The translations under genes were made by a program, and so were the position numbers. This document shows positions 13,834-47,190 of a stretch of DNA of 47,829 nucleotides, one piece after another (the stretch's first letter is position 1; each line of letters starts with the position of its first letter). Origin of the DNA: Candidatus Avigastranaerophilus sp. (GTDB lineage: Bacteria > Cyanobacteriota > Vampirovibrionia > Gastranaerophilales > Gastranaerophilaceae); the NCBI GenBank assembly GCA_045538205.1, contig JAZSQW010000003.1:1-47829 (forward strand), given 5' to 3'. The notes beneath the pieces were generated by a model. The model was given only the letters and a program-made list of their open reading frames with translations. It made no database searches and had not been told where the DNA came from.

Positions 13834-15345
13834 ATGATAAAAGCATTAATTATTATTAGAACTTCTACAAAGAAGCAAGAGGTTGATTCTCAAAATTATG
13901 AGATTGTAAACTACGTTAAATCAATGGGTTATACAGATGATGAAATTGTAGTAGTAGGTACTAAAGCAGCTTCTGCCATCAAATTAGATGACCGTTATAA
14001 AGAGAATATGAACAAGGTATATGCAACAATTAATAGTAATCCCTCTATTGAATGTGTATATGCTTGGGGTTTGGATAGAATCGGTAGAAATGAAGAACTT
14101 ATGGTAGGATTTAAGAATTTCTTGATTCAAAAAAAGATAAATTTGAGAATTAAAGAGCCATCTTTATATTTGTTAGAAGATGATGGCACTGTAAATAAAG
14201 GTATGGAATTAGCACTTAGTTTATTTATAACTATGGCTAAACAAGAAATGGAACAAAAGAAAGCCAGATTCAAAAGAGCCAAGGATAGGAATCGTAGAGA
14301 AGGAAGATTTAACGGAGGTGCTGAAACCAGATTCGGATATAGTGTAGAAAATGGATATTTCGTAGTTAATAAAGAGGAAGCAGATATAGTAAGACTGTTA
14401 TTTGATGAATATGCTACTGGAGCATATAGCATTCAAAAACTAAGCAATGAAATGAATAGTAGAGGTATTAGACACAGGGGAAAAAGGCTTACTTTAGATT
14501 TTCTGCATAGTTTGTTATCTGATAACACTTATATCGGTGAAGGAAACAAAGCCGCTATTATAGAAAAAGAAGTCTTTGATAAAGTTGCAGCTATTAGAGT
14601 TAAAAACACTTCCCCACTTTTAACTAAAGAGAGTAAGACTATACATTTAGCTACAAAAATTTTAGTCTGTGAAAACTGTGGCTGTAATTACGGAGCAAAC
14701 TTTGATAGATATGTATGTTACAAACACAGATTTCCCAGTAGATTTCAAGATGAATGTACCAACGATTTAACTATTAGAATTGACTTAATGGATAAATTGA
14801 TTTGGGAGGTAGCTTTTGAAATGCACAAACAGTATTTATCAGTCGTAGATCAGACAAAGATAAATGAAATTGATAGAGAATTAGCTGTATTAGGACAAAA
14901 AGTATTGGAAATTTACAATAAAATGGAGGCTCTTAAACCTAGAAGAGAAAGAATTATTGAATTATATACTGACGGTATTACAACTAAAGAGCAGTTCACC
15001 AGAGCAGAAAATAAGATTAAAACAGATTTAGAAAATTATAATGAAATTCTAAACAGCTATATAGAAAAGACTGAATATTATAAGGAATTGGCAGAAAAGG
15101 TTAAAAATCCAGACACAGATATTGTTGTAAATAGCCAAGAAGAAAAGAAAAAGATTGTATCAAAGCATATAAAAAAGGTCGTAGTCAGAAGGCACGAATA
15201 TTTAGGAAAAGTTATGACTTTGATAATCTTTAATGACAATATTAAAATTTTATACAATCCTTGGTCAAAACGAAAAACGGATAATAACATCTACTACTGG
15301 GAAAACGAACAGTGGGTAGGAAAATATAGAGTTTCTGCCAAATAA
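13834..15345 (+). CDS. int: large serine recombinase (integrase)
   Basis: N-terminal resolvase motif ALIIIRTSTKKQ, recombinase domain, Cys-rich zinc ribbon (CENCGCNYGANFDRYVCYKH), coiled-coil C-terminus. No TAG; TAA stop. Confidence 0.88.
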   Translation: MIKALIIIRTSTKKQEVDSQNYEIVNYVKSMGYTDDEIVVVGTKAASAIKLDDRYKENMNKVYATINSNPSIECVYAWGLDRIGRNEELMVGFKNFLIQKKINLRIKEPSLYLLEDDGTVNKGMELALSLFITMAKQEMEQKKARFKRAKDRNRREGRFNGGAETRFGYSVENGYFVVNKEEADIVRLLFDEYATGAYSIQKLSNEMNSRGIRHRGKRLTLDFLHSLLSDNTYIGEGNKAAIIEKEVFDKVAAIRVKNTSPLLTKESKTIHLATKILVCENCGCNYGANFDRYVCYKHRFPSRFQDECTNDLTIRIDLMDKLIWEVAFEMHKQYLSVVDQTKINEIDRELAVLGQKVLEIYNKMEALKPRRERIIELYTDGITTKEQFTRAENKIKTDLENYNEILNSYIEKTEYYKELAEKVKNPDTDIVVNSQEEKKKIVSKHIKKVVVRRHEYLGKVMTLIIFNDNIKILYNPWSKRKTDNNIYYWENEQWVGKYRVSAK

Positions 15346-15381
15346 AACAATAAAGCCAGCAAAGTGATGCTGGCTTTACTT

Positions 15382-16302
15382 TTATATGAAACTTAAAAAG
15401 TCGGCTTCAGACATTATTTCTATGTCTTGTCCTTTGTCTTTCAGTTTTATGGCTTTTTCTTGTTTGGAACTTAGACCGTCTTCACCTACTACCCTGTAAT
15501 CCTGCTGGCCTACTACAAGTATATCAGTATTCTTAGTTACAGAATCTACAGGGATGCCACCTATATCAGCTATCTTTTGCCACAAACCTTGTCTGGTGGA
15601 ATAGCTAAGTTTGCCAGTAAAACATACGGTTTTCTGGTAGAAGTAGTTTCCTTCATCTATCAGTTCTGGATTCCCTTGTATGTTGGCACTTTTTATTTTA
15701 GGGCTTCCAGTAGATAGCTGTGGTTTAAAGTATGATGGCTTAAATTCACCACGTTTAAAATAGTATTTGGCTTCCAGTTCCTCTAAAGATGTAACTTCTG
15801 CCAGTTCCAAAGATTTGATAAAGACTTTGGCACAGGCTACAGAATCACTTTCCGCTCTATGGTGTGATTCAAAAGGAATATTCATAGCTTCACACAATGG
15901 GGACAAAGAATAGCTGTAGGTATCTTTAAAAGTGTATTTGGCAATTCTACAGGAACAGAAATGCTTGAATGTAGGAAATTCTATATCATAGAGTTCAAAA
16001 GCATCTTTCAAAGCGTACATATCAAATGAGGTGTTATGAGCCACTACAATTTGATTTGTCAAGTATGGTTCTACTTCTTTCCAGACCTTTTCAAATGAAG
16101 GACTGTTTTTTGTCATTTGGGGTGTAATGCCGTGAAGATAGATATTAAATCCATCGTAATCATTCCCTTCTGGACGAACTAACCAGCTTTTGCTTTCAAC
16201 TATCTGGGAATCCTTTACTATGGCTATACCTATTTCACAGATAGAGTTTCTTTGCCAGTTGGCAGTTTCTAAATCTAATGCTACAAAATTCAGATTTTCC
16301 AT
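15382..16302 (-). CDS. DEDDh 3'-5' exonuclease (DnaQ-like) fused to a C-terminal BRCT domain
   Basis: FVALDLETAN ... VAHNTSFDMYAL ... HHRAESDS exo motifs. BRCT-like segment TVCFTGKLS...DILVVGQ. Start set at MENLNF because a -7 box lies inside the longer track ORF. No TAG. Confidence 0.8.
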   Translation of the reverse strand: MENLNFVALDLETANWQRNSICEIGIAIVKDSQIVESKSWLVRPEGNDYDGFNIYLHGITPQMTKNSPSFEKVWKEVEPYLTNQIVVAHNTSFDMYALKDAFELYDIEFPTFKHFCSCRIAKYTFKDTYSYSLSPLCEAMNIPFESHHRAESDSVACAKVFIKSLELAEVTSLEELEAKYYFKRGEFKPSYFKPQLSTGSPKIKSANIQGNPELIDEGNYFYQKTVCFTGKLSYSTRQGLWQKIADIGGIPVDSVTKNTDILVVGQQDYRVVGEDGLSSKQEKAIKLKDKGQDIEIMSEADFLSFI

Positions 16303-16324
16303 ACGCTTTTGTTTTAATTTGATG

Positions 16325-16332
16325 CAAATATA
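16325..16332 (-). promoter_or_regulatory. -7 box TAtaTTTG (minus strand) for the exonuclease gene
   Basis: Reverse complement of CAAATATA, 23 nt upstream of the ATG at 16302. Confidence 0.45.
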
Positions 16333-16375
16333 CAATAAAATAGCAGCTTAATAATAGTTTCTACTTATAAATGTG

Positions 16376-16383
16376 TACATTTG
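16376..16383 (+). promoter_or_regulatory. -7 box TAcaTTTG
   Basis: 23 nt upstream of the ATG at 16406. Confidence 0.45.
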
Positions 16384-16405: not shown

Positions 16406-16897
16406 ATGAAAAAAGTACTATTACTGATAGCTTTAATTAGTTTGCCACTACTGGCATTTGCACAGTCTGTATCATATACATACAAGCCATTAGCAGCAGA
16501 AGGATGCAGTGTTAGATATACTGTAGCAAAACAGGATTCTTCCAGTTACATAGTAGTTACGATAAAGTCAGACCGCTTTAAGTTCCTTACAGAATCCACT
16601 ATGTTAATAAGAACCTACAAAGATGAAGTAATAAAGTTAGAAGGTAAACATATAAATGATGGCAGTGAAACTGGTGGTATCGTATCTGGTAATATAGTTA
16701 TTCCTGTTACTGAAATAAGCACCACAGCACAATTTAAAATAACTGATGAACAAATAGAGAAATTACAGGATGGTGTAGCTAAGATAAGGATTACAGCTAT
16801 TCCAATGAATCACGAAAGAAACTTTAAGAAGGATAAGATAGGTAAGAAGCTATACAAGTACTTCAATGAGTTAGCAAATACTGATGATACCTTTTAA
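16406..16897 (+). CDS. secreted hypothetical protein (accessory/moron candidate)
   Basis: Signal peptide MKKVLLLIALISLPLLAFAQ. No TAG; TAA stop. Confidence 0.7.
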   Translation: MKKVLLLIALISLPLLAFAQSVSYTYKPLAAEGCSVRYTVAKQDSSSYIVVTIKSDRFKFLTESTMLIRTYKDEVIKLEGKHINDGSETGGIVSGNIVIPVTEISTTAQFKITDEQIEKLQDGVAKIRITAIPMNHERNFKKDKIGKKLYKYFNELANTDDTF

Positions 16898-16971
16898 AAC
16901 AAAAAAGCCAGCTTACTTAGCTGTAAAATGAAGGAATAAGGGAATAATCTTGAATTTCAAATTTTGAATGT

Positions 16972-17568
16972 ATGGTTACTATACTTTTTATTGTTGTTAT
17001 CTTAGTTATATATATACTGGTAATTGCTTGTAAAGAATCTGGGAAACGTAGAAAAGCCCAAAAGGAATTATCCGATAAATACATTAAGTTTATATCACAA
17101 TTTAACAAGGTGAATGGGACACGTTATTTATTATATGGTGATTTAAATGCAATATTTAATAAGTGCCTTGTGGATTACATTTTTACAGCTAATTATGTTT
17201 TACCTTTTGTTTTAGATAAAAAACACGATATATCTTTACATAATTACAGATATAAAGATATGAAGAACTATAAGGAATCAAGTATATACAAATTAGAAGA
17301 ATGTAGATTAGGGGAATTATTAAACATACAAAAAAACCAAGATGTGAAATTATTTTATAGTACCCTATTTGATATTTCTATAAACACCTTTTCTATAGAT
17401 CATAAAATATGTGCTGCACATTATGTTAAAGAAAATAACCCTGTAAGAATAAGAATATTTACTGAATACAGGGATTCTGGAGAACTTTGGTTAGATACAT
17501 TTACAATTACTGGACAACATATAGAATCTACAGTGAAACATTTAGGGTCAGCTTCTGATTATGAATAA
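16972..17568 (+). CDS. N-terminally membrane-anchored hypothetical protein
   Basis: TM segment VTILFIVVILVIYILVIAC followed by a 170-aa soluble domain. No TAG. Confidence 0.65.
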   Translation: MVTILFIVVILVIYILVIACKESGKRRKAQKELSDKYIKFISQFNKVNGTRYLLYGDLNAIFNKCLVDYIFTANYVLPFVLDKKHDISLHNYRYKDMKNYKESSIYKLEECRLGELLNIQKNQDVKLFYSTLFDISINTFSIDHKICAAHYVKENNPVRIRIFTEYRDSGELWLDTFTITGQHIESTVKHLGSASDYE

Positions 17569-17597
17569 TTATAGTGCTAACTTTATTGCTTATACTT

Positions 17598-18434
17598 ATG
17601 CCTAAAACATTTCAACATTTGAGTAAGTCTGCTATAAATACAATGCTGCCAGATAATTTGCAGTTAAAAGACAAAAAATATAGTGGTAATATTTACTCTA
17701 CAAAAGGAGGAGATTTAATAGGATATACAGAATCTAAATACTATGAAAAAGAAGATGAATTTTTCTATTCATTATTTATAGATTTATTTGAAGAATATGA
17801 AGTTAAAAATGCCTGTTTAGCAGTCTATAATAAGGGGGTGTTTCTGTTACCATTGGAGTTATTGTTAGAATTGAGAGAAGTTACTCATTCAAAGCTATAT
17901 AAAGATATAGGGCTAAGATATAATCTTCATATTGTTGAAAAAGATAATAGCTTCACATTGTGCAAAGCAAAAAATGGATATACAAAAGACCTAACCGAAT
18001 ACTTTATACCGTATGAAGCCCACTGTATAGAAGAATTATATGATATTGATTATGACCAGATTCTACAAGATGCTATAAAATATCAAGATTCAGAACAACA
18101 GTACACTATTACAAATGATGCAAAACGAAGAATTGAAAGTAAAAAGCAAAAGGAACGTATAGCCATTTTAGAAAATCATACCTGCCAAATATGTGGCTTT
18201 AATCAATCTTATATCAATGAAAGCGGAAATAAAAAATGGATTATTGAAGTTGATCATATTATTGAAAAGTCTAAAGGTGGAGGAGAAACAATAAATAATT
18301 TGATGGTATTGTGTCCTAATTGCCACGCAAAAAAAACTTATGGAATAATTAAAATAGATAAGAATTACCGTGTATTTGAAAATAATGTAGAAATACAAAT
18401 TAGGGACAATCATTTGAAATTATCCCTTAAATGA
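17598..18434 (+). CDS. McrA-like HNH endonuclease with unknown N-terminal domain
   Basis: C-terminal segment HTCQICGF...EVDHIIEKSKGGGETINNLMVLCPNCHAKK (CxxC...H...N...CxxCH). ATG at 17598 preferred over the GTG at 17574. No TAG; TGA stop. Confidence 0.75.
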   Translation: MPKTFQHLSKSAINTMLPDNLQLKDKKYSGNIYSTKGGDLIGYTESKYYEKEDEFFYSLFIDLFEEYEVKNACLAVYNKGVFLLPLELLLELREVTHSKLYKDIGLRYNLHIVEKDNSFTLCKAKNGYTKDLTEYFIPYEAHCIEELYDIDYDQILQDAIKYQDSEQQYTITNDAKRRIESKKQKERIAILENHTCQICGFNQSYINESGNKKWIIEVDHIIEKSKGGGETINNLMVLCPNCHAKKTYGIIKIDKNYRVFENNVEIQIRDNHLKLSLK

Positions 18435-18456
18435 ACCATATAATATAAACAAATAA

Positions 18457-18490
18457 TGCCAGCCTACAGTTAAGTAAGCTGGCATTTTTT
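18457..18490. terminator. bidirectional rho-independent terminator
   Basis: TGCCAGC-loop-GCTGGCA with TTTTTT on the + side and a T-rich run on the - side. Confidence 0.75.
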
Positions 18491-18596: not shown

Positions 18597-18667
18597 TAGT
18601 CCTATTCCGATTCAAACGGAAACTTAGAAGGTTAGAATTTCTTATGCTATCATTACATCATAGGACA
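18597..18667 (-). tRNA. candidate amber-suppressor tRNA, anticodon CUA (tRNA-Sup; Gln identity inferred)
   Basis: Hand fold of TGTCCTA TG ATGT AATGATA GCAT A AGAAA TTCTAAC CTTCT AAGT TTCCG TTTGAAT CGGAA TAGGACT A. Acceptor stem 6/7 bp (U1.U72). D stem 3 WC + 1 GU. Anticodon stem 4 WC + A.C. Loop is U-U-CUA-A-C. T stem 5/5. Has U8, A14, A21, A15:U48, T54, A58. The 19:56 pair reads A:U rather than G:C, which is compensatory. No encoded CCA. Confidence 0.5.
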
Positions 18668-18772: not shown

Positions 18773-19240
18773 TCATTTCTCCGATTTCTTCCATATACCA
18801 TTTATCTTTATGAACTTAGTACCCTTTTCTTTGGGTATCAGTAGTATATTCTTCATCTTCTTTCCTGTATTAATGGCTGTAGTCCTATTACAGTAGAAGC
18901 TATCAGTAGTAGCGTATTTACTAATGGTGAAAGTGCTGTACCAGTAACAGGAATCTTCACCAAAGAAGCAAATGTAAAAGGCTGCATCTAAACCCTTATC
19001 TTTCTTATCCTGTACCAAAGCATTAAACTTATCCACTTCCATAAGGTGTGTATCATAATCTTCATACTGCTGGCTTCTTACTTTGATTTCGGCTACTATG
19101 CCTTTATCTTTGAGTTTGAAATAAAAATCTACAGGGTTAAATTCATCTTCTGTGGGCTATAAGTCTGTAGCTTTCATCTATCCCAACAGTTCACTTAAAA
19201 GGCTTCTACCCTTCTATTCGGATTCAGTAAATTTATTCAT
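18773..19240 (-). CDS. PD-(D/E)XK / Hjc-like nuclease candidate (recoded, 3 in-frame TAG)
   Basis: Extends track ORF 18773..19042 upstream through TAGs at comp. 19214-16, 19178-80 and 19157-59 to an ATG overlapping the upstream TGA (ATGA). Reads MNKFTESEQKGRSLLSELLGQMKATDLQPTEDEFNPVDFYFKLKDKGIVAEIKVRS... (D...E-x-K). Confidence 0.65.
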
Positions 19241-20353: not shown

Positions 20354-20764
20354 TTAGTCCGCTGGGGTACTTTCCACCGTAATAGCCGCTTTTCTACCCT
20401 GCTGTAGATTACTTTTTAGTATAGAAGTTAGTAATGTTTCATATTTGGTGGAATTGAGAACTTTACCCTTCACTTTGTTTTCACCTACCAGAATACAGCC
20501 ACTGGTATCATTTGGAGTATTACCACGGTGTATTAGTATTCCTTCAAAGTTTGGCACATTAAGTAATCTGGGTAAATCCCTTTTGAATTTGGGCGATCTG
20601 TTTACTATGACTTCATAAGTGCCTTCTGGAATGGCTGTTTTGTGCATTATCTTCTTTTCTCTTACGGTATCTTCCAACGTATCACAGAAGTACTACCCAT
20701 CTATATAAAGTCTGCCTATTGTGTAATCTGTTTTTTGTGCTATTCGTTTTAAAAGTAGATTCAT
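20354..20764 (-). CDS. DUF5675-like / YkuD-fold putative cell-wall hydrolase (recoded, 1 TAG)
   Basis: Track ORF 20354..20677 extended upstream through one TAG: [23 protein letters not shown][TAG][12 protein letters not shown]... Motif [19 protein letters not shown] resembles the H...SxGC L,D-transpeptidase-fold site. Confidence 0.65.
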
Positions 20765-20819: not shown

Positions 20820-21341
20820 ATGAAAACTTATCTATTTGACACATTCAACAGATATAAAAGATTCAGTGAAAAACTGGATGCTAAGACTATTCTTTGTAAT
20901 AAATCTTGGTGGGTGTTTAATGATTCTGGAGAAAAAGAAGTGTATATTTTTAATACAGATGGTTCTTTAATTATATCCGTATCTGGTAAGGTGACAAATG
21001 CCACTTGGAAGTATATTCCTGCAAATAAATCTATCATTATTGCCGCTGGTGAAGAATCTTATATGGTTATTCCTGCTTTTGTGGATAGCAATATATTAGC
21101 TCTACAGATAGATGGTACTGATGAATTTGCTTTTCTGATTGATGAACAGAATATACAGAAATTCCTGCCTAAAACTTTATTAGAAGTACACCAATATTTT
21201 GAAGACAAGGAAGCAAAAGAAATTGAAGCTAAAATTATTAAAGAAAGAGAATTGAAAGAAACAGAACAAACAGATAAAAGGCTTGTTATCTGTCTTTTTA
21301 TTCTTGCAGGTGTGTGTGTTCTTATTGAATTATTATTTTAA
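20820..21341 (+). CDS. C-terminally membrane-anchored hypothetical protein (TAG-free island inside the recoded block)
   Basis: MKTYLFDTFNRYKRF... with C-terminal TM segment LVICLFILAGVCVLIELLF. TAA stop. Confidence 0.65.
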   Translation: MKTYLFDTFNRYKRFSEKLDAKTILCNKSWWVFNDSGEKEVYIFNTDGSLIISVSGKVTNATWKYIPANKSIIIAAGEESYMVIPAFVDSNILALQIDGTDEFAFLIDEQNIQKFLPKTLLEVHQYFEDKEAKEIEAKIIKERELKETEQTDKRLVICLFILAGVCVLIELLF

Positions 21342-21624
21342 AATGTAATTTCTAATGACATTCTTTGCAAAGGCTTTGCAAATTATGAAAGTCGTATGCC
21401 TTTTGTAATCTCATATTTCCTGTATAATTCATAAAACTATCTATGTGGTGAACATCTACAGCAGGTTTCACTATACCAGCCTGTAGGCACTATTCACAAA
21501 GTGGATTTGCCATTAGCTTTGCCTACCTTAGTTTCTTCCATTTTGCAGACTGATACACCTTCTGTCTATCCTGCCTGTTAAATGTTCTGGATTTCTGCTT
21601 TGATGGCTTCTATAAAGTTGGCAT
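21322..21624 (-). CDS. phage HNH endonuclease (recoded, 4 in-frame TAG; alternative start at 21648)
   Basis: Invisible in the track. Own translation: ...RQDRQKVYQSAKWKKLR[Q]AKLMANPLCE[Q]CLQAGIVKPAVDVHHIDSFMNY...NLQSLCKECH[Q]KLHFK. Ends in TAA and overlaps the 3' end of the convergent gene 20820..21341. Confidence 0.75.
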
Positions 21625-21967
21625 TTGTTGTAGGTGTTGGTTCTTCATATTCGGTATCTGGAAAATCTTTATCTTCTATTGGTATCACCATATAGTTTGT
21701 AACCTTACTATCTCTATAATATGCACCCTTTAATAAGTTGAAGTAGTATTTGTACTACTATATAAAGTCCTTATCTGGGTTGTAATTGTATGTCAGTTTA
21801 AGATAAGTATCATTAAATATATCTTCATCCGTTTCTGACTTCACCAGCATAGAATGTAACTGCTGGTAGTGTTTGGTAAGTAGTCTGCTTACTTCTGGGT
21901 TATATAGGGCTTTTTCTACATTAACCTACATTCTTTTCCACTAATCCCAGTTATTAACCTGCTGCAT
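21578..21967 (-). CDS. hypothetical protein, 129 aa (recoded, 4 TAG including a tandem TAG-TAG); weak sigma region-2-like pattern
   Basis: MQQVNNWD[Q]WKRM[Q]VNVEKALYNPEVSRLLTKHYQQLHSMLVKSETDEDIFNDTYLKLTYNYNPDKDFI[QQ]YKYYFNLLKG...IQNI, TAA stop. Confidence 0.6.
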
Positions 21968-22127
21968 TGTTATACTTCTTAATGTAATCTGAAATAAAGT
22001 ATCTTACAAGTTTAGCTTTTGGTAGCTGTAAATCTTTAGACATTCTGTTTAGTTCCTAATCTTGGTTAGGGGTTAATCTTACAGTGATTCTGTTACTTTT
22101 GTTCTTTGTTTTATCGGTATTTCTCAT
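21954..22127 (-). CDS. ribbon-helix-helix (Arc/MetJ-like) DNA-binding protein, 57 aa (recoded, 1 TAG)
   Basis: MRNTDKTKNKSNRITVRLTPNQD[Q]ELNRMSKDLQLPKAKLVRYFISDYIKKYNNAAG, TAA stop. Confidence 0.6.
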
Positions 22128-22154
22128 ATCCATTAATTTATAGGTTTATATAAA

Positions 22155-22282: not shown

Positions 22283-22660
22283 ATGGCAAAATTTAAGATA
22301 CCTACAGACATTGAAAAGGATGCAGTGGAATATATGAAGAATGTGCTGCAACAGTTAGAAGATAACGGTGTTTTGGAAAATGTAGATAGTGCTGCATTAA
22401 CAATGCTGGCCAGAAACTACAGTATGTTTATCAAAGCATCCAAATAGCTTGAAAAAGATGGATTAACAGTAACCAGTGACAGGGGAAACATAGCACCCCA
22501 CCCAGCTATAAAGATTGCCAAAGATGCACAAATACAGGCTATGAAAGTAATGGCAGAATTTGGGCTTACTGCCAAAGCCAGAACCAAATTAAAGATAGAT
22601 AAGGCAGATGAAGATTCACCGTTTGAAGCGTTTGTAAAGGCTGGTAAAGAAGTTAGATAA
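22283..22660 (+). CDS. terS: terminase small subunit, P27 family (recoded, TAG at 22445-22447)
   Basis: MAKFKIPTDIEKDAVEYMKNVLQQLEDNGVLENVDSAALTMLARNYSMFIKASK[Q]LEKDGLTV...HPAIKIAKDAQIQAMKVMAEFGLTAKARTKL. TAA stop overlaps the next ATG (TAATG). Confidence 0.8.
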
Positions 22661-23277
22661 TGGGCAAATTAAAGAAGAATCCTATTCTGGATGATGCAGG
22701 TAAGATTATAGGGTATGAAGCACCAACAAAGGATATACAGATAATGGTATGTGACAAGAAAGAAGCGGATGCCATAATTATAGCAAACCACTATTCACAC
22801 AAAGCCACAAAGAACAGCTTTCTTTCTTTTCTGGTGTATTACAAAGATAAGGTAGCTGGGGCTTTACAAGTCGGTTATGGAATCCGACCAAAGAAAAAGG
22901 GTACACTGAATCCAGACGAAGTTAGGGAATTTGATAGAATGTGGCTATCTGATGAAATGCCGAAATATTCGGAAACTATCACTTTATCCCTGCTACACCA
23001 TTATCTAAGGAAAGTACACCCAGAAGTAAAGTATCTGATTAGCTATGCAGATAACAGTAGTGATGTAGGCAATGAAGGGACTATTTATAAGGCTGCAAAC
23101 TACAAACTGATAGACAAAGTAAAATCCGATTTCTACATACTTGAATCTGGTGAACGAGTACACCCAGTAACGATGTGGCACAGACACGGAACAAGAAAAT
23201 GGGCTTTCCTACAGTAGCAGTACCCCAACATTAAAAAGGCTGATGGATTCCAGATGAAATACCTGTTTGAATTATGA
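22660..23277 (+). CDS. Mom-like GNAT-fold DNA-modification protein (adenine methylcarbamoylation family), recoded (TAG at 23215-23217)
   Basis: ANHYSHKATKNS...REFDRMWLSDEMPKYSET...LISYADNSSDVGNEGTIYKAANY matches the family pattern as I remember it. TGA stop in an ATGA overlap with terL. Confidence 0.6.
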
Positions 23278-24893: not shown

Positions 24894-26102
24894 ATGAAGA
24901 TAGGTAACTTAGAAATTAATTGGAACAAACAGCCAGTAGTAGAAGAACGTAGTTTCTTTGATTCTTTGATGTATAACAGTAATGGTAGTTACAGCACTAA
25001 TAAGGCTATGCTTTTATCTACAGTTTACAGGTGTGTAGATGTAATCAGCGATTCAGTAGCCCAGTTACCATTAGAACCATATTACAAAGATAAGTTTGGC
25101 TATAAGATGAAATTTGTGGATCATCCTACTTACTACCTGCTTAACAAAGAGCCAAACGGCAAAATGAGCAGATTTACCTTTATAAAGACTTTGGTAGTAA
25201 GTGTATTACTAAATGGTAATGGATATGCCTATATAGAACGAGATAATAAAGGTGATGCTATATCCCTATAGTATATCCCTTCAGAATATGTTACCATTAC
25301 TGAAGTAAAGAACGGTATCAAATACAGTGTGGTAGGTATCAAAGGGCTGGTAGAACCCTGTAATATGATACACCTTCTTAACTTTAGTTATGATGGCATT
25401 AAGGGTATCAGTACATTAACCCACGCAAGGCAGACTTTAGGACTTTCAGCAGACAGTGAAGCCCACGCTACAGGATTCTTCAAAGGTGGTGCAAATCTGG
25501 CTGGTATATTGAAAGTACAAAGTATATTAACTGGCAAACAGAAAACAGACTTAAAAACAAGCTGGCAGACTGCTTTTAGTCCTACAACTGGTACACCCAA
25601 CGGAGTAGCAGTACTTGAAGGAAATATGGACTTTTAGCCCATTACAGTAAACCCTGCTGATGCACAACTGTTAGAAACCAGAGAATTTAACGTAATTGAT
25701 ATTTGTAGGTTCTTTGGGGTATCACCAGTTAAAGCATTTGATTTGAGTAAATCCAGTTACAGTACAGTAGAAGCTACACAACTGGCTTTCCTCACTGACA
25801 CCTTAGCACCCTTATTAGAAAAGATTGAACTGGAATTTGAACGGAAACTGTATAAACCATCCGAAAGAAAGAATATTGAAGTAAGATTTGATACTTCTGT
25901 ACTGCTTAGAGCCGACAAAGCAAGTTTAGCCAGTTATTATAATACACTATTCCAGATTGGAGTGATAGCACCTAATGAGATTAGAAGGGAATTGGATTTG
26001 CCAGCCTTGGAGAATGGAGATAAGACCTTTGTACAAGTGAACGTACAAACTTTGGAAAATGCAACAAATAACATTAAAGATGAAGGAAACACGCAGCTTT
26101 AA
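24894..26102 (+). CDS. portal protein, HK97 family (recoded, TAG at 25269-25271 and 25635-25637)
   Basis: Track ORFs 24894, 25329 and 25743 share one frame. Colinear portal pattern (...GGANLAGILKV...VLEGNMDF[Q]PITVNPADAQLLETREF...). TAA stop. Confidence 0.85.
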
Positions 26103-27800: not shown

Positions 27801-27826
27801 TACAGTTTGTTAATAATAAGTAAGCT

Positions 27827-29845: not shown

Positions 29846-29851
29846 TCAAAC

Positions 29852-29888: not shown

Positions 29889-29902
29889 AACTTTAACAGA
29901 CT

Positions 29903-35352: not shown

Positions 35353-35354
35353 CT

Positions 35355-37985
35355 ATGGAAATAAAGAGATATTACATACCAAAATTACCCAGAAACAAAT
35401 ACACTACAACTGGTACAAATATTACTTATACTGGTACAAATGGTGGTAGTACTTCATACATCTACAATAATACCCAAACAGTAGATGTATATGATGGATT
35501 GGATAGTACATCTATAAAGAAAGCCTTATCTGCTAATTAGGGTAGAATATTGAATGAACAGATAGCAGCCAGTAATGAAATATCTACTGAATTGCAGGAA
35601 CAAATAACAGCCAATTTACAATATACAAACGACAACTTTTTAAATAAGAAAAATGAAGATACGGCTGAAAAACTGATACACTTTCTGGAGGGGATAGATG
35701 CACAGGGTATCAGCACTTTGGAAGATATTACTTTACTGGGTGATTTGATTTCCAGTAACTTTGTCAAAGATTCAAACGGCTTTGGAATCTATTAGGATGA
35801 TGAAGGCAAATACCATTTTGATATAGACTTTGTAAATGTAAGGGGAAAGTTCACTACTGAAAGTCTGGAAGTGAAGGAATCCACACACATAGGGGGAAAG
35901 ATCTACAGCACAAAGGCAGGAATGATTTGTAGCAAGGTAGAAGAATATGATACTTATTACAGATGCTATTTTAATACAACTGATGCCGATGGAAGGATAA
36001 TCAGTAACCAGTTTGCCGTGAATGATTAGGCTTTTATGCAGACTTTCAATTTGATTACTTAGGCAGATGGAAAGACTGGTAATAGAAGGTTCTGGCGGTT
36101 GGTTGAAGCTATTGGCGAAAACTACATAGACTTATCAAAGACTGATTATGAATCTGGTTCTGATGCTCCTTTGGCTGGGGATAGTATTGTACAGCTTGGA
36201 AATAGAAGTGATTCCACCAGACAGGGAGCACTGATATTAGAACCATTATCTATGAAGGTGTACAAGGGAATCAAAAGCTATGTACTGCCTACACCCTTTA
36301 TAGACTTGAACCCAGAAAAATCAGTGATAGAAGCCCAGTTAATCAATGTGGCAACTGGTGAAGATATTAATGATACCATTAACAGCATTAACAACAGGAT
36401 AGCACAGGTTAAGGAGCAATCCGATAAATGTTTCACTATCTGGATGGATGCTTATACACCGACACTGGAGAATTTACCTGCTTCTGCCTGGACTACTGAC
36501 AGTATGAAGAATGAACACTTACAGGATATATTCTATGACACCTCAAAAGAAGCTGGTTCTGGTGGAAGGGCTTACAGGTTTGAACTTAATAACGGTGTTT
36601 ACAGTTGGGTAGAGATTACGGACAAAGACACTATAGCAGCACTGGAACAAGCCAAAGCAGCAGAAGATTTAGCGGATAGCAAAAGACGGGTGTTTGTTGA
36701 ACAGCCTACTATAGATTCAGTTTATGATGTCGGAGATATTTGGGTTAATGCAAACTACAATGATGGAACTACCATCTATAAGAATGATGAATTAGTTTGT
36801 ATCACTGCTAAAACTGCTGGTATGGCTTTCAGTATTTCCCATTGGTAGCCCACTTCTACAGCTACTACTGCTTACATAGAGAACTTAGGCAATCAGATAA
36901 CACAGGCTGTAACGGATTCTAAGGATGGTATAGATGCTGCAAAAGAACTGGCATAGCAGGGAATAGACAGAGCAGAACAGGCTATAGTTTCGGCTACAGA
37001 AGCTATAGATTCGGCACTTTATGCCAATGAACTTGCAAATGATGCCTGCTACAGAGCGGAACAGGCAGAAATAGCATCTTCAGAAAATACCACAGTGATA
37101 CAGCAAACACAGGATTCAATAGTAGCACTGGCCAATAAGATTTCATTTGATGCAGATGGAAATATAGTGAACACAGACAAAAGCGGATTGGTAACTACTG
37201 CTGATTTCAATACCCTGTTATCAGAGAAAGTTTCTTTTGATGATGATGGGAATGTAACAAATGTATCTACAGCAGGATTAGTTACCACTGCCAACTTTGC
37301 CGATATGTTTGCAGAACAAACTACAGAAGATGGACTGGTAAAGAGAGCAGACATTAGCACCTTCATTACAGCAGATGAAGCTGGGGAACTGGTATCTAAT
37401 GCCACCATACAGGCAGACAAAATAAACTTCATTGGTAAAACAATGATAAACGGAAACTTTGTAGTAGATACCAGTGGTAATGTGACAATGAAAAATGCCG
37501 ATGTAACAGGAAAGATTACAGCAACAGAGGGAGAATTTAACGGAGTATTGAAAGCCAGTCTGATGTATAGTAATACGATAGCAGTTACAGGAAAAGAATA
37601 CACTATTAATCCAGAAGAAAGCCCTGCCTGCTGCTTTGTGTTTGACAATCCAAAAATATTAGGGCAGTATATCTGGCTTCCAAATGCAACCCAGTATGAC
37701 GGTTTGGAAGTGCAGTTATTCTTGAAATGGTCAGATTCCAGTTATAACTTTATGGATTATTACACAGGATTCGGGAGCAAGGCCAGTTCTATCTTTTGGG
37801 CAAGGAATGTGTATAGTATAGGGGAACTGGGAAGCAGTGTAACGGTGCAGAAATACTGTTTGGCACTATCAGAATCGGCTGCTGGTGAAAATAATGTTTT
37901 CAGAGTACTGCCTAACTGTATGTACAGACTGAAAGCAATGCTGGGGGCTTGGTATGTGGTGGAAGGATTACTGAACGGAGAGTAA
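35355..37985 (+). CDS. tail fibre / receptor-binding-like protein, 876 aa (recoded, 6 TAG)
   Basis: ORFs 35355, 35550, 36099 and 37095 share a frame. ...KKALSAN[Q]GRILNEQI... fibre-like N-terminus, coiled-coil and repeat regions. TAA stop. Confidence 0.75.
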
Positions 37986-37987
37986 CG

Positions 37988-38182
37988 ATGAAAAGAATAA
38001 CAGTAAGAATAACAGAAGCAAAGTGTGACGGTCAGCAGATGGCAGTGATACACAATCTGGAAAGTGACTGTGAACAGGTATATGAACTGAACAGGATTAT
38101 GCACGCTTTAGCATTTACACAGATAACAGTAGAACAAACAAATAAAGGGTTTACTTATGTGTTCCCTTTAAAACTATAGTAA
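37988..38182 (+). CDS. small hypothetical protein ending ...PLKL-TAG-TAA
   Basis: ATG at 37988. TAG at 38177-38179 is followed directly by TAA, so the product is nearly the same in either code. Confidence 0.5.
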
Positions 38183-38185
38183 TAT

Positions 38186-41100
38186 ATGAAACTGAATATA
38201 GGAACAAAATACACAGGGGATTATCTTACAGCAGAAGAATTTAACCAGTTAGTCAGTGCCATAAACAATTACAAGTTAGGGGAACTGACTAACGTAAATT
38301 CCACTGTGGATGAAGATGTAGAAGATGATTGTGTACTGGTAAAATATGCTGGTGAAGATACTTTTACCCTAAAGAGACTGGCAGAGATAACCACACCAGT
38401 AATAGGGCTACAAAGATACATAGCTTTGCAGAATAATATGATTAGTAAGAATGTGGCTGTAAGTAAGGGTGATAACTGTTTGTTGGATTTCACCTTTGTT
38501 TCACAGGAAAGATATTCTTCAGCAGACAAATACACTAACACAGATGAAAGGGGACTTTTGTAGGTAGCCATTAAGAACAGTACATACAGTGAATACACCA
38601 TAGTTAAGCAGGTGTACATAAACAGTGCAGAACCTACCAAACTGGATATAACGGAATATCTTACTTCCAGTTCTAATAGTGTTATGCTGAAATGTGAAGG
38701 GGAAGTTACAGGGGAAACTACTTCGGCTTTGGTTTATACGGTAACAGTAACTACACTGGGTATCAATGCGGATAATTTCAGATGGTGGTAGCCTTATTCT
38801 GGTGATATAGCCATACCATTCATTATTAGCGGTAACATTACAAAGAAACTGTTTGTGACGGTAACAGGCAATGGATATAACACTTCTTATGAAGAAAACT
38901 TAGGTACTACCACTTACACAGAAACACCGTATAACTACACAGTACCCAGACCTACAGCAGATGGAGTTTATAAGATTACGGCTTATGTAAGTAATCTGGA
39001 TGAAACATTAGTGACAAAGCAAGTTTCATTTAATGTTATTGTAGCTTCCACTGGTTCACAGAAAAAATATCTGGTTGTAAATAACGTGAATACAACCATT
39101 AAGAACTATTCGGAAAACAATGTATTGGAATATGCCGTTTATGATGGGGATTCCAGTACTACAGATTTGAACTTTACTATAGTTCTGGAAGGGAAACAGG
39201 TTTATCTATCTACTGAAGATGCAGCACCTACACAAAGCAGAAACAGCTTTACCTATCAAGCGGAAATAGAGTATGAAAGCAATTCCAATTTTGAAGTAAC
39301 TTTGGCTATTGGTGATGATGTCACAAAGAATCTGGTAACCCCCATTTCTTTAGTGGTGGATAACAGCTATTCATTTGGAAGTACAGCAGGTGCTACATTC
39401 TATATGAACCCCAGAACCAGAAGCAATGCACAAAGCAACAGGACAAAGATAGTGAATGAAGTAACTGGTGAAGAAATTGCAGCTACTTGGACTAACTTTA
39501 ACTGGGGTAATGATGTATGGCAAACAGACGATGCAGGGAACAGGGTACTTAGGGTAATGAGTAATGAAAAGCTGGTAATGGACTATTACCCATTCAAGAC
39601 AGAAGCAGCCCGAAAAGGTAAGACTATAGAAATTGATTATTTGGTAGATAATGTAATAGACTACAGCCAGCCTGTTATACAGATGTGCAGCAGTGAAGAT
39701 GAATATACAGGATTGAGAATCACCCCAGATAATATTTGCCTGTTATCCCAGTCACTGAAGAACAAGATTACACAGGCTACCAATACCGACACAGGAAAGA
39801 GAATCAGACTAACAGTAGTGATTATGCCTACAGCTTATGGAAATGCTGACTTTAATTTGGCTATCCTGTATATCAATGGTAAGAAGAACAGGGAATTTTC
39901 ATACGCTACCAATGATTATTTTGCATAGAGTTCACCAGTAACTATAGGTTCAAACTTTGCTGATGTCGATGTTTACGGAATAAGAATGTATGATATGGCA
40001 CTTACTTCATAGCAGGTGCTGAAGAACTATATAAACTGGCTTACTGACAATGCAGAGAAAGAGCAGGTAAACACTGCTAATGATGTGTTGGATATTACAG
40101 GTACGGAAGTAGATTTTGATAACACCATAGACCAGTATAACATTATGGTATTTGACAATGATTTGCCTTCTTACTTAGACCCCAACGAAAAGAAGGGTAC
40201 TTTGTCTATCTACTTCTATGAGCACCCAGAAAGAAACGTATCAATCAGTAATGTAAAAGCCAGTGGTTAGGGTACATCTTCAAAGAAGTATTTCAGATGG
40301 AACACGAAGTACAAACTGGATAAGGAAAAAACGGTTATCACTTATGCCGATGGTACAACAGGTACAAAGAAATGGCAAATGACACCAGATGTACCTGCTG
40401 CCAGTGTATTTACTGCCAAAAAGAATTTTGCATCTTCTATGCAATCTCATAAGATGGGTAGTGTTAATTCGGTGGATTTACTCTATAAGGAACTGGGGCT
40501 TACTAACGAAGCTATGGAACTGGATTCTACAAAGAGAATAGCCGTTTACCAGATGCCGTTTATAATGTTTACAAAGTCGGTAAATGAAGAGGGGGACACC
40601 GTTTATAGGTTTGAAGGTGAATATACTTTTGGTGCAGATAAAGGGGATGAAAATACTTTTGGCTATGATACTGACAAGTTCCCCAGATTGATAAGTATAG
40701 AAGGTTCTGATAATTCACCACTGCCAGCCCTGTTTAGGATTCCTTGGAGTAGCAGGATGCAGTATAATGAAGATGAAGAGGCTTTTTAGTACAACGGTTA
40801 GAACTGCTGGGATTTTGGAGGTGGAGAGGTAGAGAATATAGATTTATGGATTCCTGCCTATAATCTGGCTTATGAATGTAGCAACAGAATACGACCTTTT
40901 AACGGTACACTGGATGAACTAAATGCCGATGTAGTGACCTATAGAAGTTCTGGGTATGATTACTGGATAGCTAAAGAAGGTGATGCCAACCAATATAACC
41001 AGTACTACTATGAGAGTTCAGAAGGCAGGTTTATAGGGGCTGATACTGGTAACGGTACTATCAATCTGCTTACATAGTTGGCAGATTACATAGACACTGC

Positions 41101-44074
41101 CAGTTTTTCCGCTTTGAGCAATGAGGAAAAGAACAGTTTGTTTATCACTTCCAGAATAGCCAAATTTAGGGATGAAGCACCTACATACTTTGACATTACA
41201 GATGCCATATTTCACAGGAACTGGATAGAAGTTCACGCTGGTACAGACCAGAGAGCAAAGAACACTTATCCCTATTGCTTTGGTGATGGGTATAAATGGA
41301 AATGGCGGTTTGATGATATGGATACAATCTTTGACACCGACAATCAAGGATAGCCACTAAAGAAGTATTCTGTAGAAGTACAGGATGAAGGGGTTTGGAA
41401 CGGACAAACCAGCAACTTCTGGAACTTGATAGATTTGGCATACCCAGAGGAAATACATAATGAAATGACTGCCTTTTTAAATGCAATGGAAACACTGGGG
41501 GGATTGAATGTAGGGGATGATTACGGCAAACTGTATGCCTACTTCAAACGGTTCTATTTAGACAATTCACAGTATTTCCCTGCTGCCGTAGTTAATGCTG
41601 ATACAAAGTACTGCTATGAGACTGCCAAACTGAATACGCAGTATGTGAATGATACAGACCCGATGACACAGGCACTGGGCGATCATTATTCTGCTGAAAG
41701 TGCTTGGATAAGCAAACGTATCAATTACATAATGAGTAAGTACAGCTATGGTAATTTCAGTGCTCACGGTAACGATACTATCATAGTCCGTGCAGCAGGT
41801 GATTTGATTAACTACCAGCTTACACCAGCCATAGATTTGTACCCGAATATAGCTAATGGTACTTCCATAGTGAGAGGTAACAGAACTTATGCAGGTGATA
41901 CTACTGTTATGACTATTGATTTGGGTGGTAGTGCAGACCAGCAGAACATTATACAGGGTGCAAGTTGGTACAGTTCTATAGGTGACTGGCACGACAAGAA
42001 CGTAAAGGGAACTATGACTATACAGGGTAAGAGATTACAGGAACTTGTATTAGGCAGTAAGACAGATGATATAACCATAAAGATAGATGCCTTAGAAGTA
42101 AAATCTACCTGTAAATCATTACAAAGCATCCTTCTTAGTAACATATCCACTTTGAAGGGTAATCTGGATTTGTCGGGGTGTACACATTTAAGGGAAATAT
42201 ACGCAGATGGTACGGCACTTTCACAGATAATACTTCCAAAGGGTTCACTGGAGCACATAGAATACCCAGATACCAGCCAGTATTTGAATCTGTAGAACTA
42301 TCCGCTTTTGACTTATGATAATGTAAAACTGGGTAATAGTATAGGTAATATCAATGATATGATAATAACTGCCTGCCCATAGATGTAGCCTGTAAGGATG
42401 CTTAGTGACATTATCAGTGAAGATAACCATTCTTTGAAGCGTATAAGGCTAACAGATTTTAATGAAGTGTTTGATTCTTCCAATGGTTCTAAGGTGTTGG
42501 ATAATCTGGCTATCCTTACAAATGGTAACTATACTGGACTGGATGCAAACGGCATAGAGATAGAAGGCAGTTATCCGTTTCTGGATGGTACTATAACGGT
42601 AAACTGTAACTGCTATGAAGATTCTGTAGAAGCATTAAGAAGCAAGTTCAACAGATTAACTATTAATGTGAACGGACAATATTACATTAGATTCAAAGAC
42701 CAGCAGACACAGGATTATATAGTAGGTTTGTGGGGGGATGGCAAAGGGGTAACAAAAAGTGCGTTGAAACCTTTAACCAGTTCCTATTATGGTACTTTGT
42801 TCTTTGCTTATGTAAGTAATGGCACAGCAGATGGAAAACCTACTGACGATAGATTATTAAGACCTATCAGTATGAATTATGAACTGGGAGAATACTTTGA
42901 TGAATTGAAGTACTTTACAGGGTGTGAAAGGGTTACGATGTATAATACAAGGTTAAAAGGGGCTATATTCCCTGCTTAGTTAAATAATGCTTCTGGGCCA
43001 AAGATAGCTGTGGCAGGATCTACTGTAGAATATGTCAAATATATGGACGGTGAATAGAATTTGACGGTTTCATTTGATAATAACTATTCAATACAGCAAA
43101 CTATAGAATTACTATATTTGCCACATAATGTAGTAAATATGGCTGATTATGTTTTCAGAAGTGTAAGCTATGGAGAATTTTATATAGCTGCCACTACACC
43201 ACCTGTAATGAAATGGGGATATGGCAGTAGTGTTAATGCTGTAAAGGGCAAAGTGTATATTCCTGTAGGTGCAAAAGCAACTTATGAAGCTGCTACATAT
43301 TGGAGTAACTTTGTAGATAAGTTTGAAGAATATGATTATGATTCAGATGGAAGGGGTGTTATTCCGTATATGGAATATACCAAAGAACTTACAGGATTAA
43401 CCAGTAGCTATAGAAAGGGGTATATAGAAACAATACTGACACCCAGAAACGCTGTAAGAGATTTGGTGTATGAATCAAATGTAGATAATTTCGTAAAGGT
43501 TAGTAAAACAGGAAAACTTACTTTTGGGAACTTTGGTACTTCACAGGTGAAGGTTTACAATTCATATAAGCCAGAACTTTTTTCCACTATAACACTATCT
43601 GTAGAAAAACCTGCTAATGGGTATTATTCATACAACGCACCTATAACATTTGATACAGGTATTCCACTTACATTAAATACTAAGATGTATATGAAGTTTA
43701 ACAACTTCCAGAAGTCTATAATGATGGGATTATGTGGTACTGCTTGGAATAGTAGTAATGGTATGTACTTTAATTCCAATAGTACAACATAGCTAAGATT
43801 CATTAATAACGGTATCACTACAGTTAATGTTACTGCTGGTGAACCTTTGGAAGTCCTGTTTGAAAATGGTAAGGTTACAGTTAATGGTACAGAATATACA
43901 TTAGGTGTAAGAACAGAATCTGCTACTGGTACTATTAAGCTATTTAATAATAACTATGCTATGGATGAACCTAATTTCATTGGTGATATGTATGAGATAA
44001 AAATATATGAAGGTGATGAACTGTTAGCCCATTATGCACCTTCAACAGATGGAACTTTGGTAGAACTTGTATAA
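38186..44074 (+). CDS. giant tail/host-recognition protein, 1962 aa (recoded, 15 TAG), with LRR and BspA-type LRR_5-like C-terminal regions
   Basis: Ten track ORFs (38186, 38855, 40016, 40379, 41078, 41426, 42398, 43061, 43847 and others) all in frame 2. All inter-ORF gaps hand-translated and contain only TAG. LRR-like segment ...LSNISTLKGNLDLSGCTHLREIYADGTALSQIILP... BspA-like segment ...FYIAATTPPVMKW...VYIPVGAKATYEAATYWSNF. TAA stop. Confidence 0.8.
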
Positions 44075-44085: not shown

Positions 44086-44286
44086 ATGACAAAGAACACA
44101 AAACTTAATATTTAGTTGGTATCAGCTTTAATACTGGTAGTGGTAGGCTGTGGACTGCTGATAGCTGGTTTCATTGTAGCACCACTTGGAATAATAGATA
44201 GTAGTGTATTGGTCGCATTTGGTGAAACTTGTACTTTTGCTGGTGCTTTATTCGGCATAGATTATCATTATAAACTAACTAAATGA
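44086..44286 (+). CDS. holin-like two-TM small membrane protein, 66 aa (recoded, TAG at codon 10)
   Basis: MTKNTKLNI[Q]LVSALILVVVGCGLLIAGFIVAPLGIIDSSVLVAFGETCTFAGALFGIDYHYKLTK. TGA stop, then a terminator. Confidence 0.5.
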
Positions 44287-45289: not shown

Positions 45290-45314
45290 ATTATTTATTT
45301 ACAATTATTTATAG

Positions 45315-46388: not shown

Positions 46389-46421
46389 GAGAAAACTTTA
46401 GCCATAGTAATAATGAAAAAA

Positions 46422-46452
46422 AGCCAGTAGGATTATTCCTGCTGGCTTTTTT
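46422..46452 (+). terminator. rho-independent terminator
   Basis: AGCCAGTAGG-loop-CCTGCTGGCT followed by TTTTTT. Confidence 0.75.
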
Positions 46453-46486
46453 GTGTGTTTGTAGTTCTTCTATAAAATCAATTTGC

Positions 46487-46494
46487 TACCTTTG
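46487..46494 (+). promoter_or_regulatory. -7 box TAccTTTG
   Basis: 16 nt upstream of the ATG at 46510. Confidence 0.45.
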
Positions 46495-46509
46495 CATAAA
46501 AAATACAGG

Positions 46510-47190
46510 ATGGATAAGGAAACATTAATAAAAGCAATAAATCACAAGGAATATGGCAATAGCCTTATTTCAATTTGGTATAATATCGGTAGGGCTTTAC
46601 CATTCAGAGCACAGAGATTTCCAGATGGTAGGGTTTCAGATTGGTATAGGTCACAGTTTGTAGAAGTACATAGTGTTAAGCCCAGTGGTAAAGGGGCAAA
46701 GTATGGTAATGCTTATGGCTTCTATTATAGGAATGATGAAAGAGCAAATGCAGATGATAATCCAGATTATAGCTGGTGTAATATTGATGATTCAGAGCCA
46801 AAAGATATACCACACGCAGCTTGTGGTTCTTGGGTTCTTATTGATATTCTTGGTGAAGCTACAGCAGAACCGACCAAAGTATATGGGGTTAATGATGTAT
46901 TAGAAAAAGGCAAATATAAAGGAAAAACTGTAGCAGAAGTTATTCATTCAGATTGGAGCTGGGTTAAATGGGCGGAAACTAATAGTGAACAATTCTTCTT
47001 TAAGTGGGATGAAGTCTTGGAAGAACGGAAGAAAAGTATAAAGATTTTGCAGCCAGAAGATATACTTACTTTTGGAAAGTATAAGGGTAAGACAATAAAA
47101 GATATAGCAGAAAATGATTTCAACTATCTTAGGTGGTTAGCTGATAGAACAGATGATTTTGCAATTAATTTTGAAGGGTTGAAAGATTAG
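46510..47190 (+). CDS. protein with two DUF3820-like (GKYKGKT...Y[LV].W) repeats; the only prophage gene whose stop is TAG
   Basis: GKYKGKTVAEVIHSDWSWVKWAETN and GKYKGKTIKDIAENDFNYLRWLADRT. TAG at 47188-47190 is followed 19 nt later by a 12-bp terminator stem. Confidence 0.7.
   Translation: MDKETLIKAINHKEYGNSLISIWYNIGRALPFRAQRFPDGRVSDWYRSQFVEVHSVKPSGKGAKYGNAYGFYYRNDERANADDNPDYSWCNIDDSEPKDIPHAACGSWVLIDILGEATAEPTKVYGVNDVLEKGKYKGKTVAEVIHSDWSWVKWAETNSEQFFFKWDEVLEERKKSIKILQPEDILTFGKYKGKTIKDIAENDFNYLRWLADRTDDFAINFEGLKD

Follow-up and report, generated by a model that had tools for sequence, protein, structure and literature searches.

A temperate phage that uses TAG as a glutamine codon in its virion genes and keeps its arm genes free of TAG

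Contig JAZSQW010000003.1 (assembly GCA_045538205.1) carries, within the 47,829-nt stretch that we analyzed and here call the window, a prophage in which the codon TAG appears in two roles: many genes contain it in frame, and one gene, at 46510-47190, ends on it. A preliminary description of the locus had proposed that the prophage is split into a TAG-free lysogeny and accessory set and a TAG-rich lytic set, and that the split stops lytic proteins from being made until a suppressor is expressed. The locus thus raises three questions: whether TAG is a sense codon in part of the element, whether the remaining genes lack it for reasons other than their length and composition, and what such a division would do for a lysogen.

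The recoded centre and its suppressor tRNA

When only TAA and TGA were taken as stops, open reading frame (ORF) coverage of the region 22500-44300 rose from 0.77 to 0.98, whereas making TGA a sense codon instead gave only 0.85. The region resolves into long ORFs with in-frame TAGs, and frames are broken by TAG only, never by TAA or TGA. In a refined list of 35 genes (10,656 codons), 66 in-frame TAGs fall in 21 genes: those of the virion block (22283-44074), most genes of the leftward operons and a holin-like ORF. All 21 terminate with TAA or TGA; such ends are partly built into the ORF calls, and Pfam matches and orthologue ends agree with them. The genes concerned are the following (lengths in amino acids, aa).

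22283..44074 (+): packaging, head and tail block; 52 in-frame TAGs, all stops TAA or TGA
22660-23277 (+): protein of the DNA-modification family Mom, its gene lying between those for the small and large terminases; a single TAG, codon 186 of 205
44086..44286 (+): 66-aa membrane protein, possibly a holin; 1 TAG, codon 10
21954-22133 (-): ribbon-helix-helix (RHH) protein, 59 aa; 1 TAG
21578-21967 (-): 129-aa protein; 4 TAGs
21322-21648 (-): HNH protein; 4 TAGs
20354..20764 (-): DUF5675 protein, described earlier as a YkuD-like hydrolase; the Pfam match (E = 1.5e-34) runs across TAG codon 24
18773..19240 (-): 155-aa protein, described earlier as a nuclease; 3 in-frame TAGs, last ORF before the suppressor tRNA gene

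The block encodes TerS, the Mom-like protein, TerL, portal, protease, capsid, connectors, tube, chaperones, tape measure and three large tail proteins. TAG density is highest of all, at 17-37 per 1000 codons, in the leftward operon 21322..22133(-) that adjoins the terminase genes.

Pfam matches cross TAG codons in the portal (42-368 of 402) and Mom (26-203 of 205) proteins as well as in TerL, capsid, protease, TerS and the DUF5675 protein. Aligned to 60-78 standard-code relatives, the TAGs at TerL codons 29 and 136, portal codon 248, capsid codon 113 and TerS codon 55 correspond to glutamine (78 of 80 sequences at TerL codon 136, 60 of 62 at capsid codon 113). Glutamine also occupies one TAG position of the 155-aa protein in 30 of 41 homologues, and is by far the commonest partner of TAG positions overall. 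Since TAG positions in conserved columns are glutamine in standard-code relatives, the alignments show that TAG has been recoded to glutamine in the virion genes (code 15).

A tRNA able to read such a codon was not found by default ARAGORN or by Rfam run on the whole window and on a 4.1-kb stretch. At a 90% threshold, ARAGORN returned a cloverleaf with the anticodon CTA at 18596-18667(-), in an intergenic gap, and the Rfam tRNA model scored 42.7 bits on a 131-nt stretch (gathering score 29). With a purpose-built covariance model and filters off, no other real tRNA was found in the window; a low-threshold ARAGORN call of a tRNA-Ser at 47272-47344 lacked Rfam support and was dropped. In the cloverleaf reading, tRNA(CUA) keeps U8, A14, A21, U33, A37, G53-C61 and T54-A58 and has A73 and U3-A70; A19-U56 replaces G19-C56, U1.U72 is unpaired, CCA is not encoded and the GC content is 35%. 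The gene is also present in L002, one of two near-identical pieces (L001 and L002) in IMG/VR. The leftward unit that contains it has the following order.

20060-20067 (-): -7 promoter motif
19766-19957 (-): 63-aa ORF, first of the leftward operon; TAG-free
19237-19818 (-): double winged-helix, replication-initiator-like protein, 193 aa (Pfam, PHROGs); TAG-free
18773..19240 (-): the 155-aa ORF with three TAGs listed above
18597..18667 (-): suppressor tRNA(CUA), from ARAGORN at the 90% threshold and Rfam tRNA
18489-18581 (-): 30-aa hydrophobic ORF between the tRNA and the operon terminator
18455..18486 (-): terminator hairpin at the end of the leftward unit, beyond the tRNA and the 30-aa ORF

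The host glutaminyl-tRNA synthetase (GlnRS) is encoded at 7588-9333(+) (TIGR00440, 677 bits, cutoff 426) and, on the precedent of E. coli, would be expected to charge tRNA(CUA). The location of this gene 4.5 kb from the prophage is probably a coincidence.

An IMG/VR pattern search for relatives of tRNA(CUA) retrieved the same phage only, and hence no covariation set. No suppressor was found in the examined parts of three contigs that are used for comparison below (L097, L081 and L085), and a low-threshold call of a tRNA-Stop(tta) in L097 was dropped. Six standard-code relatives carry a tRNA(CAU) in their leftward region (L014, at 5198-5269(-), and L015, L035, L039, L040 and L042). It shares U1.U72, A73, C74 and the D-arm with tRNA(CUA), the two being 53% identical compared with 29-42% identity to other tRNAs, and the suppressor may have arisen from it. 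Simple orthology is not supported by synteny, the two genes lying at different places in the leftward region.

The DNA on both sides of the element is intact and in the standard code. Its GC content is 48-52% (1 to ~13790 and ~47390 to the window end) versus 30-40% in the element, with steps near ~13800 and ~47350 and a drop from 0.52 to 0.33 at the left junction; the prophage is bounded at ~13789-47393 (33.6 kb). The flank contains ordinary Bacteroidales-type genes, relatives of the host DNA are all Bacteroidales, and a match to a Bacteroides small RNA was sub-threshold. No in-frame TAG interrupts host ORFs of 496-612 aa, and host ORF coverage is nearly unchanged by reading TAG as sense (0.905 vs. 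0.918), as would be expected of a standard-code Bacteroidales chromosome. TAG ends none of 12 host genes in the window (1-13765, 47377-47781) and one of about 28 in contigs of the same species (L098, L099); the direct evidence that the host stops at TAG comes from that one L099 gene.

13779..13788: left junction, AATGTTCCCG, inverted copy of 47394-47403; probable attB half-site
47394..47403: right junction, CGGGAACATT, inside a 29-nt block identical in L085

These sequences form a 10-bp inverted repeat at the two junctions and probably represent attB half-sites for the serine integrase; the expected empty integration site is ACTCTATAATGTTCC...GGAACATTGTTAATAC. The element recurs in the metagenome contig L085, where it occupies the same site and has an identical right junction; the host flank there has only ~75% identity, yet the 29-nt block is unchanged. 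The two copies diverge over the 70-80 nt just within the right end, which leaves the exact boundary uncertain. Occurring in two host backgrounds, the prophage is a mobile, recently active temperate phage and no relic. To judge from these features, it belongs to the temperate siphoviruses of HK97 type and was integrated by its large serine recombinase.

TAG-free genes on the two arms

The arms were set by position and not by TAG content, as the genes left of 18435 or right of 44354. Genes of the arms and the TAG-free features considered with them are listed below.

13834..15345 (+): large serine recombinase, the integrase (Pfam Resolvase, Recombinase, Zn_ribbon_recom); 503 codons, no TAG, TAA stop
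15382..16335 (-): DEDDh exonuclease-BRCT protein (Pfam RNase_T, BRCT), matching the PADLOC defence candidate PDC-S48 (E = 2e-32); no TAG, TAA stop
16406..18434 (+): three-gene accessory cassette; 647 codons, no TAG
16406-16897 (+): first cassette gene, a PDC-M59C-like signal-peptide protein (PADLOC PDC-M59C, E = 3e-66)
16972-17568 (+): second cassette gene, a membrane protein; no TAG
17574-18434 (+): third cassette gene, an HNH protein (Pfam HNH); no TAG
44354-45289 and 45498-46388 (+): two right-arm cassettes, unassigned; 607 codons, no TAG, TAA stops
46510..47190 (+): 226-aa protein with two ExoX-like_C (DUF3820) repeats (Pfam); no internal TAG, TAG stop
47191..47253 (+): non-coding tail 3' of the 46510 gene; 20 codons including TAG 47227, then TAA 47251
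20820..21341 (+): 173-aa protein of the centre with a C-terminal membrane segment; no TAG
27827-28129, 29903-30199 and 30196-30513 (+): short structural genes of the centre; no TAG by count

All genes that the preliminary description had listed as TAG-free indeed have no in-frame TAG, and all those it had named as recoded carry one; only its count of two TAG-free short structural genes has to be raised to three. There is no TAG in the 2300 codons of the eight arm genes and there are 66 in the 8356 codons of the centre. The difference is significant by Fisher's test per codon (p = 1.8e-7), against CAA plus CAG (p = 4.4e-6) and against CAG alone, the harshest null (p = 1.7e-3). Off-frame TAG trinucleotides are frequent in TAG-free genes. 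On the arms, then, the claim that the partition exceeds what length and composition predict holds. In the centre it does not: the TAG-free genes there (the 193-aa winged-helix gene, the 63-aa and 173-aa genes, a connector and two chaperones) each have a probability of 0.22-0.61 of containing no TAG. For the winged-helix, 63-aa and 173-aa genes jointly this probability, calculated from the centre rate, is ~0.03, which is marginal. Because each central TAG-free gene is unremarkable for its length, the statistical case rests on the arms.

The two compartments differ in other respects as well. GC content at third codon positions (GC3) is 0.26 on the arms and 0.33 in the centre, and the CAA:CAG ratio is reversed, 42:23 vs. 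89:177 (p = 8e-6).

Comparison of the window with L002 or L085 revealed 13 switches between TAG and sense codons among 679 nucleotide differences in recoded genes. In TAG-free genes there were no switches among 255 differences, where ~4.9 were expected (Poisson 0.0076, Fisher 0.025). Interchange between close strains is mostly CAG-to-TAG, and eight TAG codons of a tail gene changed between the window and L085. Synonymous divergence (dS) from L085 is 0.29 for the ExoX gene, 0.51 for acc296 and 0.12 for acc311, compared with 0.23 for the tail gene; with one and the same comparator it is 0.048 for the exonuclease-BRCT gene and 0.094 for the HNH gene, compared with 0.034 for TerL. Since arm dS equals or exceeds core dS, the arm genes have shared the recoded lineage with the core for an equally long time. 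Purifying selection acts on all compared genes, with ratios of nonsynonymous to synonymous divergence (dN/dS) of 0.02-0.26; relative to L085, the ratio is 0.19 for the 1962-codon tail gene with its 15 TAGs and 0.14-0.20 for the cassettes 44354-45289 and 45498-46388. We conclude that TAG is kept out of the arm genes actively, with a contribution from import from a standard-code pool.

The integrases of relatives extend the comparison. The core of L002 is 99% identical to that of the window, but its serine integrase is a different one (563 aa, 24% identity), also without TAG, and the genes 16406-16897 and 16972-17568 are missing. L097 is an independently TAG-recoded Muribaculaceae prophage, with a TerL 80% identical to that of the window and a TAG-free tyrosine integrase (399 aa). 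TerL proteins of this family (73-86% aa identity) come from prophages of Bacteroides, Parabacteroides, Paludibacter, Rikenellaceae and Muribaculaceae. With the code judged only from ORF coverage under each code, TGA appears recoded in L066, L069, L089, L092, L093 and L094 and TAG in L097 and L081, and most of L003-L080 use the standard code.

Upstream of the integrase gene and of genes 16406, 20820 and 46510, the Bacteroidetes-type -7 motif TAnnTTTG is present 23-30 nt before the start codon. The copies for the integrase (13805-13812), the leftward operon (20060-20067(-)) and gene 46510 (46487-46494) read TACCTTTG; the promoter of gene 20820 is TTTG...TAATTTTG at 20764-20798. The motif precedes the RHH gene too, at the head of its recoded leftward operon (promoter at 22155-22185(-)). 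The two-box pattern TTTG...TAnnTTTG had 11 matches compared with 2.3 expected, and a scan for sigma-70 promoters gave no signal above shuffles. Each right-arm gene has a terminator of its own (45313-45343, 46417-46452 and 47207-47243). Given these -7 motifs and terminators, expression of the arm genes in the lysogen is probable, and their anatomy of promoters, terminators and defence candidates is that of usual prophage morons.

Gene 46510-47190 ends in TAG at 47188-47190, as had been reported, and the hairpin that follows at 47207-47243 has the reported 12-bp core (47209-47220 / 47230-47241). The product has the C-terminus ...NFEGLKD. Read-through would add not 24 residues, as first stated, but 21 (QKQIQNGIAYFFKQKVGYSSY), passing a second TAG at 47227 and ending at TAA 47251. 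It would have counted against the preliminary description if homologues normally carried this extension, but they do not: among 120 of them, the C-terminus coincides with the residue aligned to 226 in 50 and lies no more than three residues from it in 93, and a chromosomal standard-code homologue in a defence-island context has TAA at the same endpoint. The orthologue in the TAG-recoded contig L081 ends in TAG, with TGA two codons on. That of L085 keeps the TAG stop, and the TAA that would end the extension is TAG there, so that the tail is not conserved as coding sequence. Only one database homologue, P0001 (259 aa), has the extension. The gene model behind it, at L085 10001-10780, passes three TAGs into non-coding DNA and is a read-through artefact of annotation, produced when a single code is applied to a dual-code element.

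Two further observations concern the centre. An 80-nt GC-rich patch at 20273-20350, set in AT-rich intergenic DNA directly 3' of the DUF5675 gene, has no significant predicted fold (z = -1.1). Between two tail genes lies a 64-aa ORF, 37988-38182(+), that terminates in TAG with TAA directly behind it. Searches by exact sequence with the integrase and with the 46510 product gave no record.

A proposed translational lock and its alternatives

The explanation that we favour, with a probability of about 0.7, combines a suppressor-gated recoded set with a standard-code set on the arms, the former acting as a translational lock on the lytic programme. The phage tRNA(CUA) at 18597-18667 would decode TAG. 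The integrase and the defence-type and accessory cassettes of both arms would be translated while the suppressor is absent; purifying selection would hold them TAG-free, with any of the three stops usable, and 46510-47190 would simply happen to use TAG. Genes expressed only after the leftward operon with its tRNA has been transcribed would be free to gain TAG, mostly by CAG-to-TAG transitions. Such genes would drift into the recoded state and then become locked in it, and would have to terminate with TAA or TGA. In the lysogen, release factor 1 (RF1) would cut leaky packaging, head and tail products at the first TAG, which 14 of the 21 recoded genes have in the first third of their length. The timing of tRNA synthesis, and a lock that is adaptive rather than a side effect, are what we infer from this arrangement.

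Several observations weigh against this explanation. The bias of TAG towards the 5' end is weak (Kolmogorov-Smirnov p = 0.036), and the polymorphism test reaches only moderate significance. Among the recoded genes are that of the RHH regulator, which opens its leftward operon, and the very ORF just upstream of tRNA(CUA), so that some proteins needed early would already depend on the suppressor. Codon 10 of the holin-like ORF, TAG in the window, is CAG in L085. No maintenance repressor was identified in the prophage. The tRNA could be made constitutively, and since host TAG stops are rare, constitutive suppression would cost the host little. As to the proposed division into lysogeny and lytic genes, the TAG-free arms and the presence of a suppressor tRNA agree with it, but the division is not strict, the TAG-free set including the replication-initiator-like winged-helix protein and the recoded set including the RHH and holin-like proteins.

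The strongest rival, which we regard as quite possible though short of even odds, is that the partition is a by-product: TAG would drift neutrally wherever the suppressor is always present and be purged elsewhere, recording transcriptional timing, and a lock would add nothing. The free interchange of TAG and sense codons between close strains, mostly CAG-to-TAG, is what one would expect in this case, and a later published time-series study also sees in-frame TAG gained and lost. The TAG of the holin-like gene is evidently dispensable in L085, TAG density peaks in small leftward-operon genes and not in lysis or structural genes, and the weak position bias fits as well. Against it, nearly every essential virion gene holds at least one TAG, and repeated recoding in the TerL family, to TAG and to TGA, suggests an advantage. 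Since neutral drift predicts the same sequence pattern as the suppressor-gated lock, sequence cannot separate the two. An explanation by recent import, in which the arms are mobile cassettes newly drawn from a standard-code pool and too young to have acquired TAG, accounts for the exchanged integrase of L002 and its lack of 16406-17568, for the lower GC3 and reversed CAA:CAG ratio of the arms, for the matches of arm genes to defence-candidate models and for the occurrence of the 46510 family in defence islands of standard-code chromosomes. It is nonetheless unlikely as the whole answer: the right-arm genes are shared with L085 at a dS (0.12-0.51) that brackets that of the neighbouring tail gene, which changed its eight TAG codons over the same interval, while the 255 differences include none of the ~4.9 expected TAG changes, and the unrelated integrases of the window and L002, as well as that of L097, are all TAG-free.

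That length and AT content alone explain the TAG-free genes, or that the TAGs are nonsense codons in a dying prophage, is refuted. The short central genes are individually compatible with chance, but the arms are not under any of the three null models. Decay would not restrict frame breaks to TAG, leave a dN/dS of 0.19 over 1962 codons with 15 TAGs, or be expected with a cognate tRNA(CUA) present and the phage known from two host backgrounds as well as from viral contig collections. A different extension of the lock would have TAG chosen as the stop of standard-code genes, so that C-terminal extensions added under suppression alter or inactivate lysogen-phase proteins; in that case the code switch would shut down functions of the lysogen in addition to activating the lytic genes. 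The TAG stops of the 46510 orthologues in two recoded phages (L081 and L085) are compatible with this, as are at least three integrase-proximal genes of L097 that end in TAG. In L097 2487-6713, a HicA toxin is full length only via TAG read-through (Pfam 7-63 of 64), and TAG seems to be the stop of three genes there, namely the ORF adjoining HicA and those for a DUF5053 protein and an early protein of 598 aa. These are hints that read-through extensions may be part of the code switch, and we hold the idea to be doubtful, more so than recent import.

Comparison with known recoded phages

The code-switch idea itself has been published, and the window holds a further case of a known arrangement. 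Borges et al. (bioRxiv 10.1101/2021.08.26.457843; published 2022) reported the Garnet and Topaz prophages, which are recoded at TAG, have TAG-free integrases and reside in Prevotella and Oscillospiraceae that use the standard code; they proposed a lytic-lysogenic code switch, found that the code changes between close relatives and stated in their Methods that TAG may legitimately terminate an integrase. Like these, the window element is a prophage with TAG read as glutamine in a standard-code gut bacterium (the Garnet example, in Prevotella, is also from Bacteroidota), almost all its phage genes are fragmented in code 11, its integrase has no in-frame TAG and its close relatives use other codes. 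Unlike the Garnet example as described, it measures 33.6 kb rather than ~24 kb and uses a large serine recombinase, without lying beside a host tRNA. In contrast to Garnet and Topaz, its standard-code set comprises the integrase and seven further arm genes, several of which match defence-candidate models, and its suppressor tRNA escapes default detection.

Reportedly, work by Ivanova from 2014 and by Yutin from 2021 describes crAss-like and Lak phages with stop-codon recoding in late genes. Peters 2022 (PMC9523058) likewise treats late-gene stop-codon recoding in crAss-like and Lak phages. As in those phages, a suppressor tRNA of the phage would read TAG as glutamine, early genes being compatible with the standard code and late ones recoded. 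Those phages are, however, large and virulent or of uncertain lifestyle, whereas the window phage is a small, integrated, temperate siphovirus, and for this reason the two codes reside together in one chromosome for long periods.

As to charging, the supE-type tRNA-Gln(CUA) and tRNA-fMet(CUA) of E. coli are said to be charged by GlnRS, in work attributed to Schulman and Pelka in 1985 and to Varshney and RajBhandary in 1990. In such laboratory amber suppressors the CUA anticodon with its U35 and a weak or unpaired 1:72 favour GlnRS, and the window tRNA, with U1.U72, meets a host GlnRS. Unlike E. coli tRNA-Gln, which has G73 and G2-C71/G3-C70, the natural phage tRNA has A73 and U3-A70.

What the window adds is modest. 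The standard-code compartment spans whole defence-type cassettes on both arms, beyond the integrase; a strain-level polymorphism test supports selection that keeps TAG out of arm genes; TAG-terminated standard-code genes recur in independent recoded relatives; and the suppressor tRNA is cryptic to default tools, so that recoded phages reported without a suppressor may be detection failures and merit a second look. The window offers a complete example of a two-code chromosome, with both junctions, suppressor tRNA, host GlnRS gene and very close standard-code relatives side by side, and one small enough for a direct test of the code switch, should the lysogen prove culturable.

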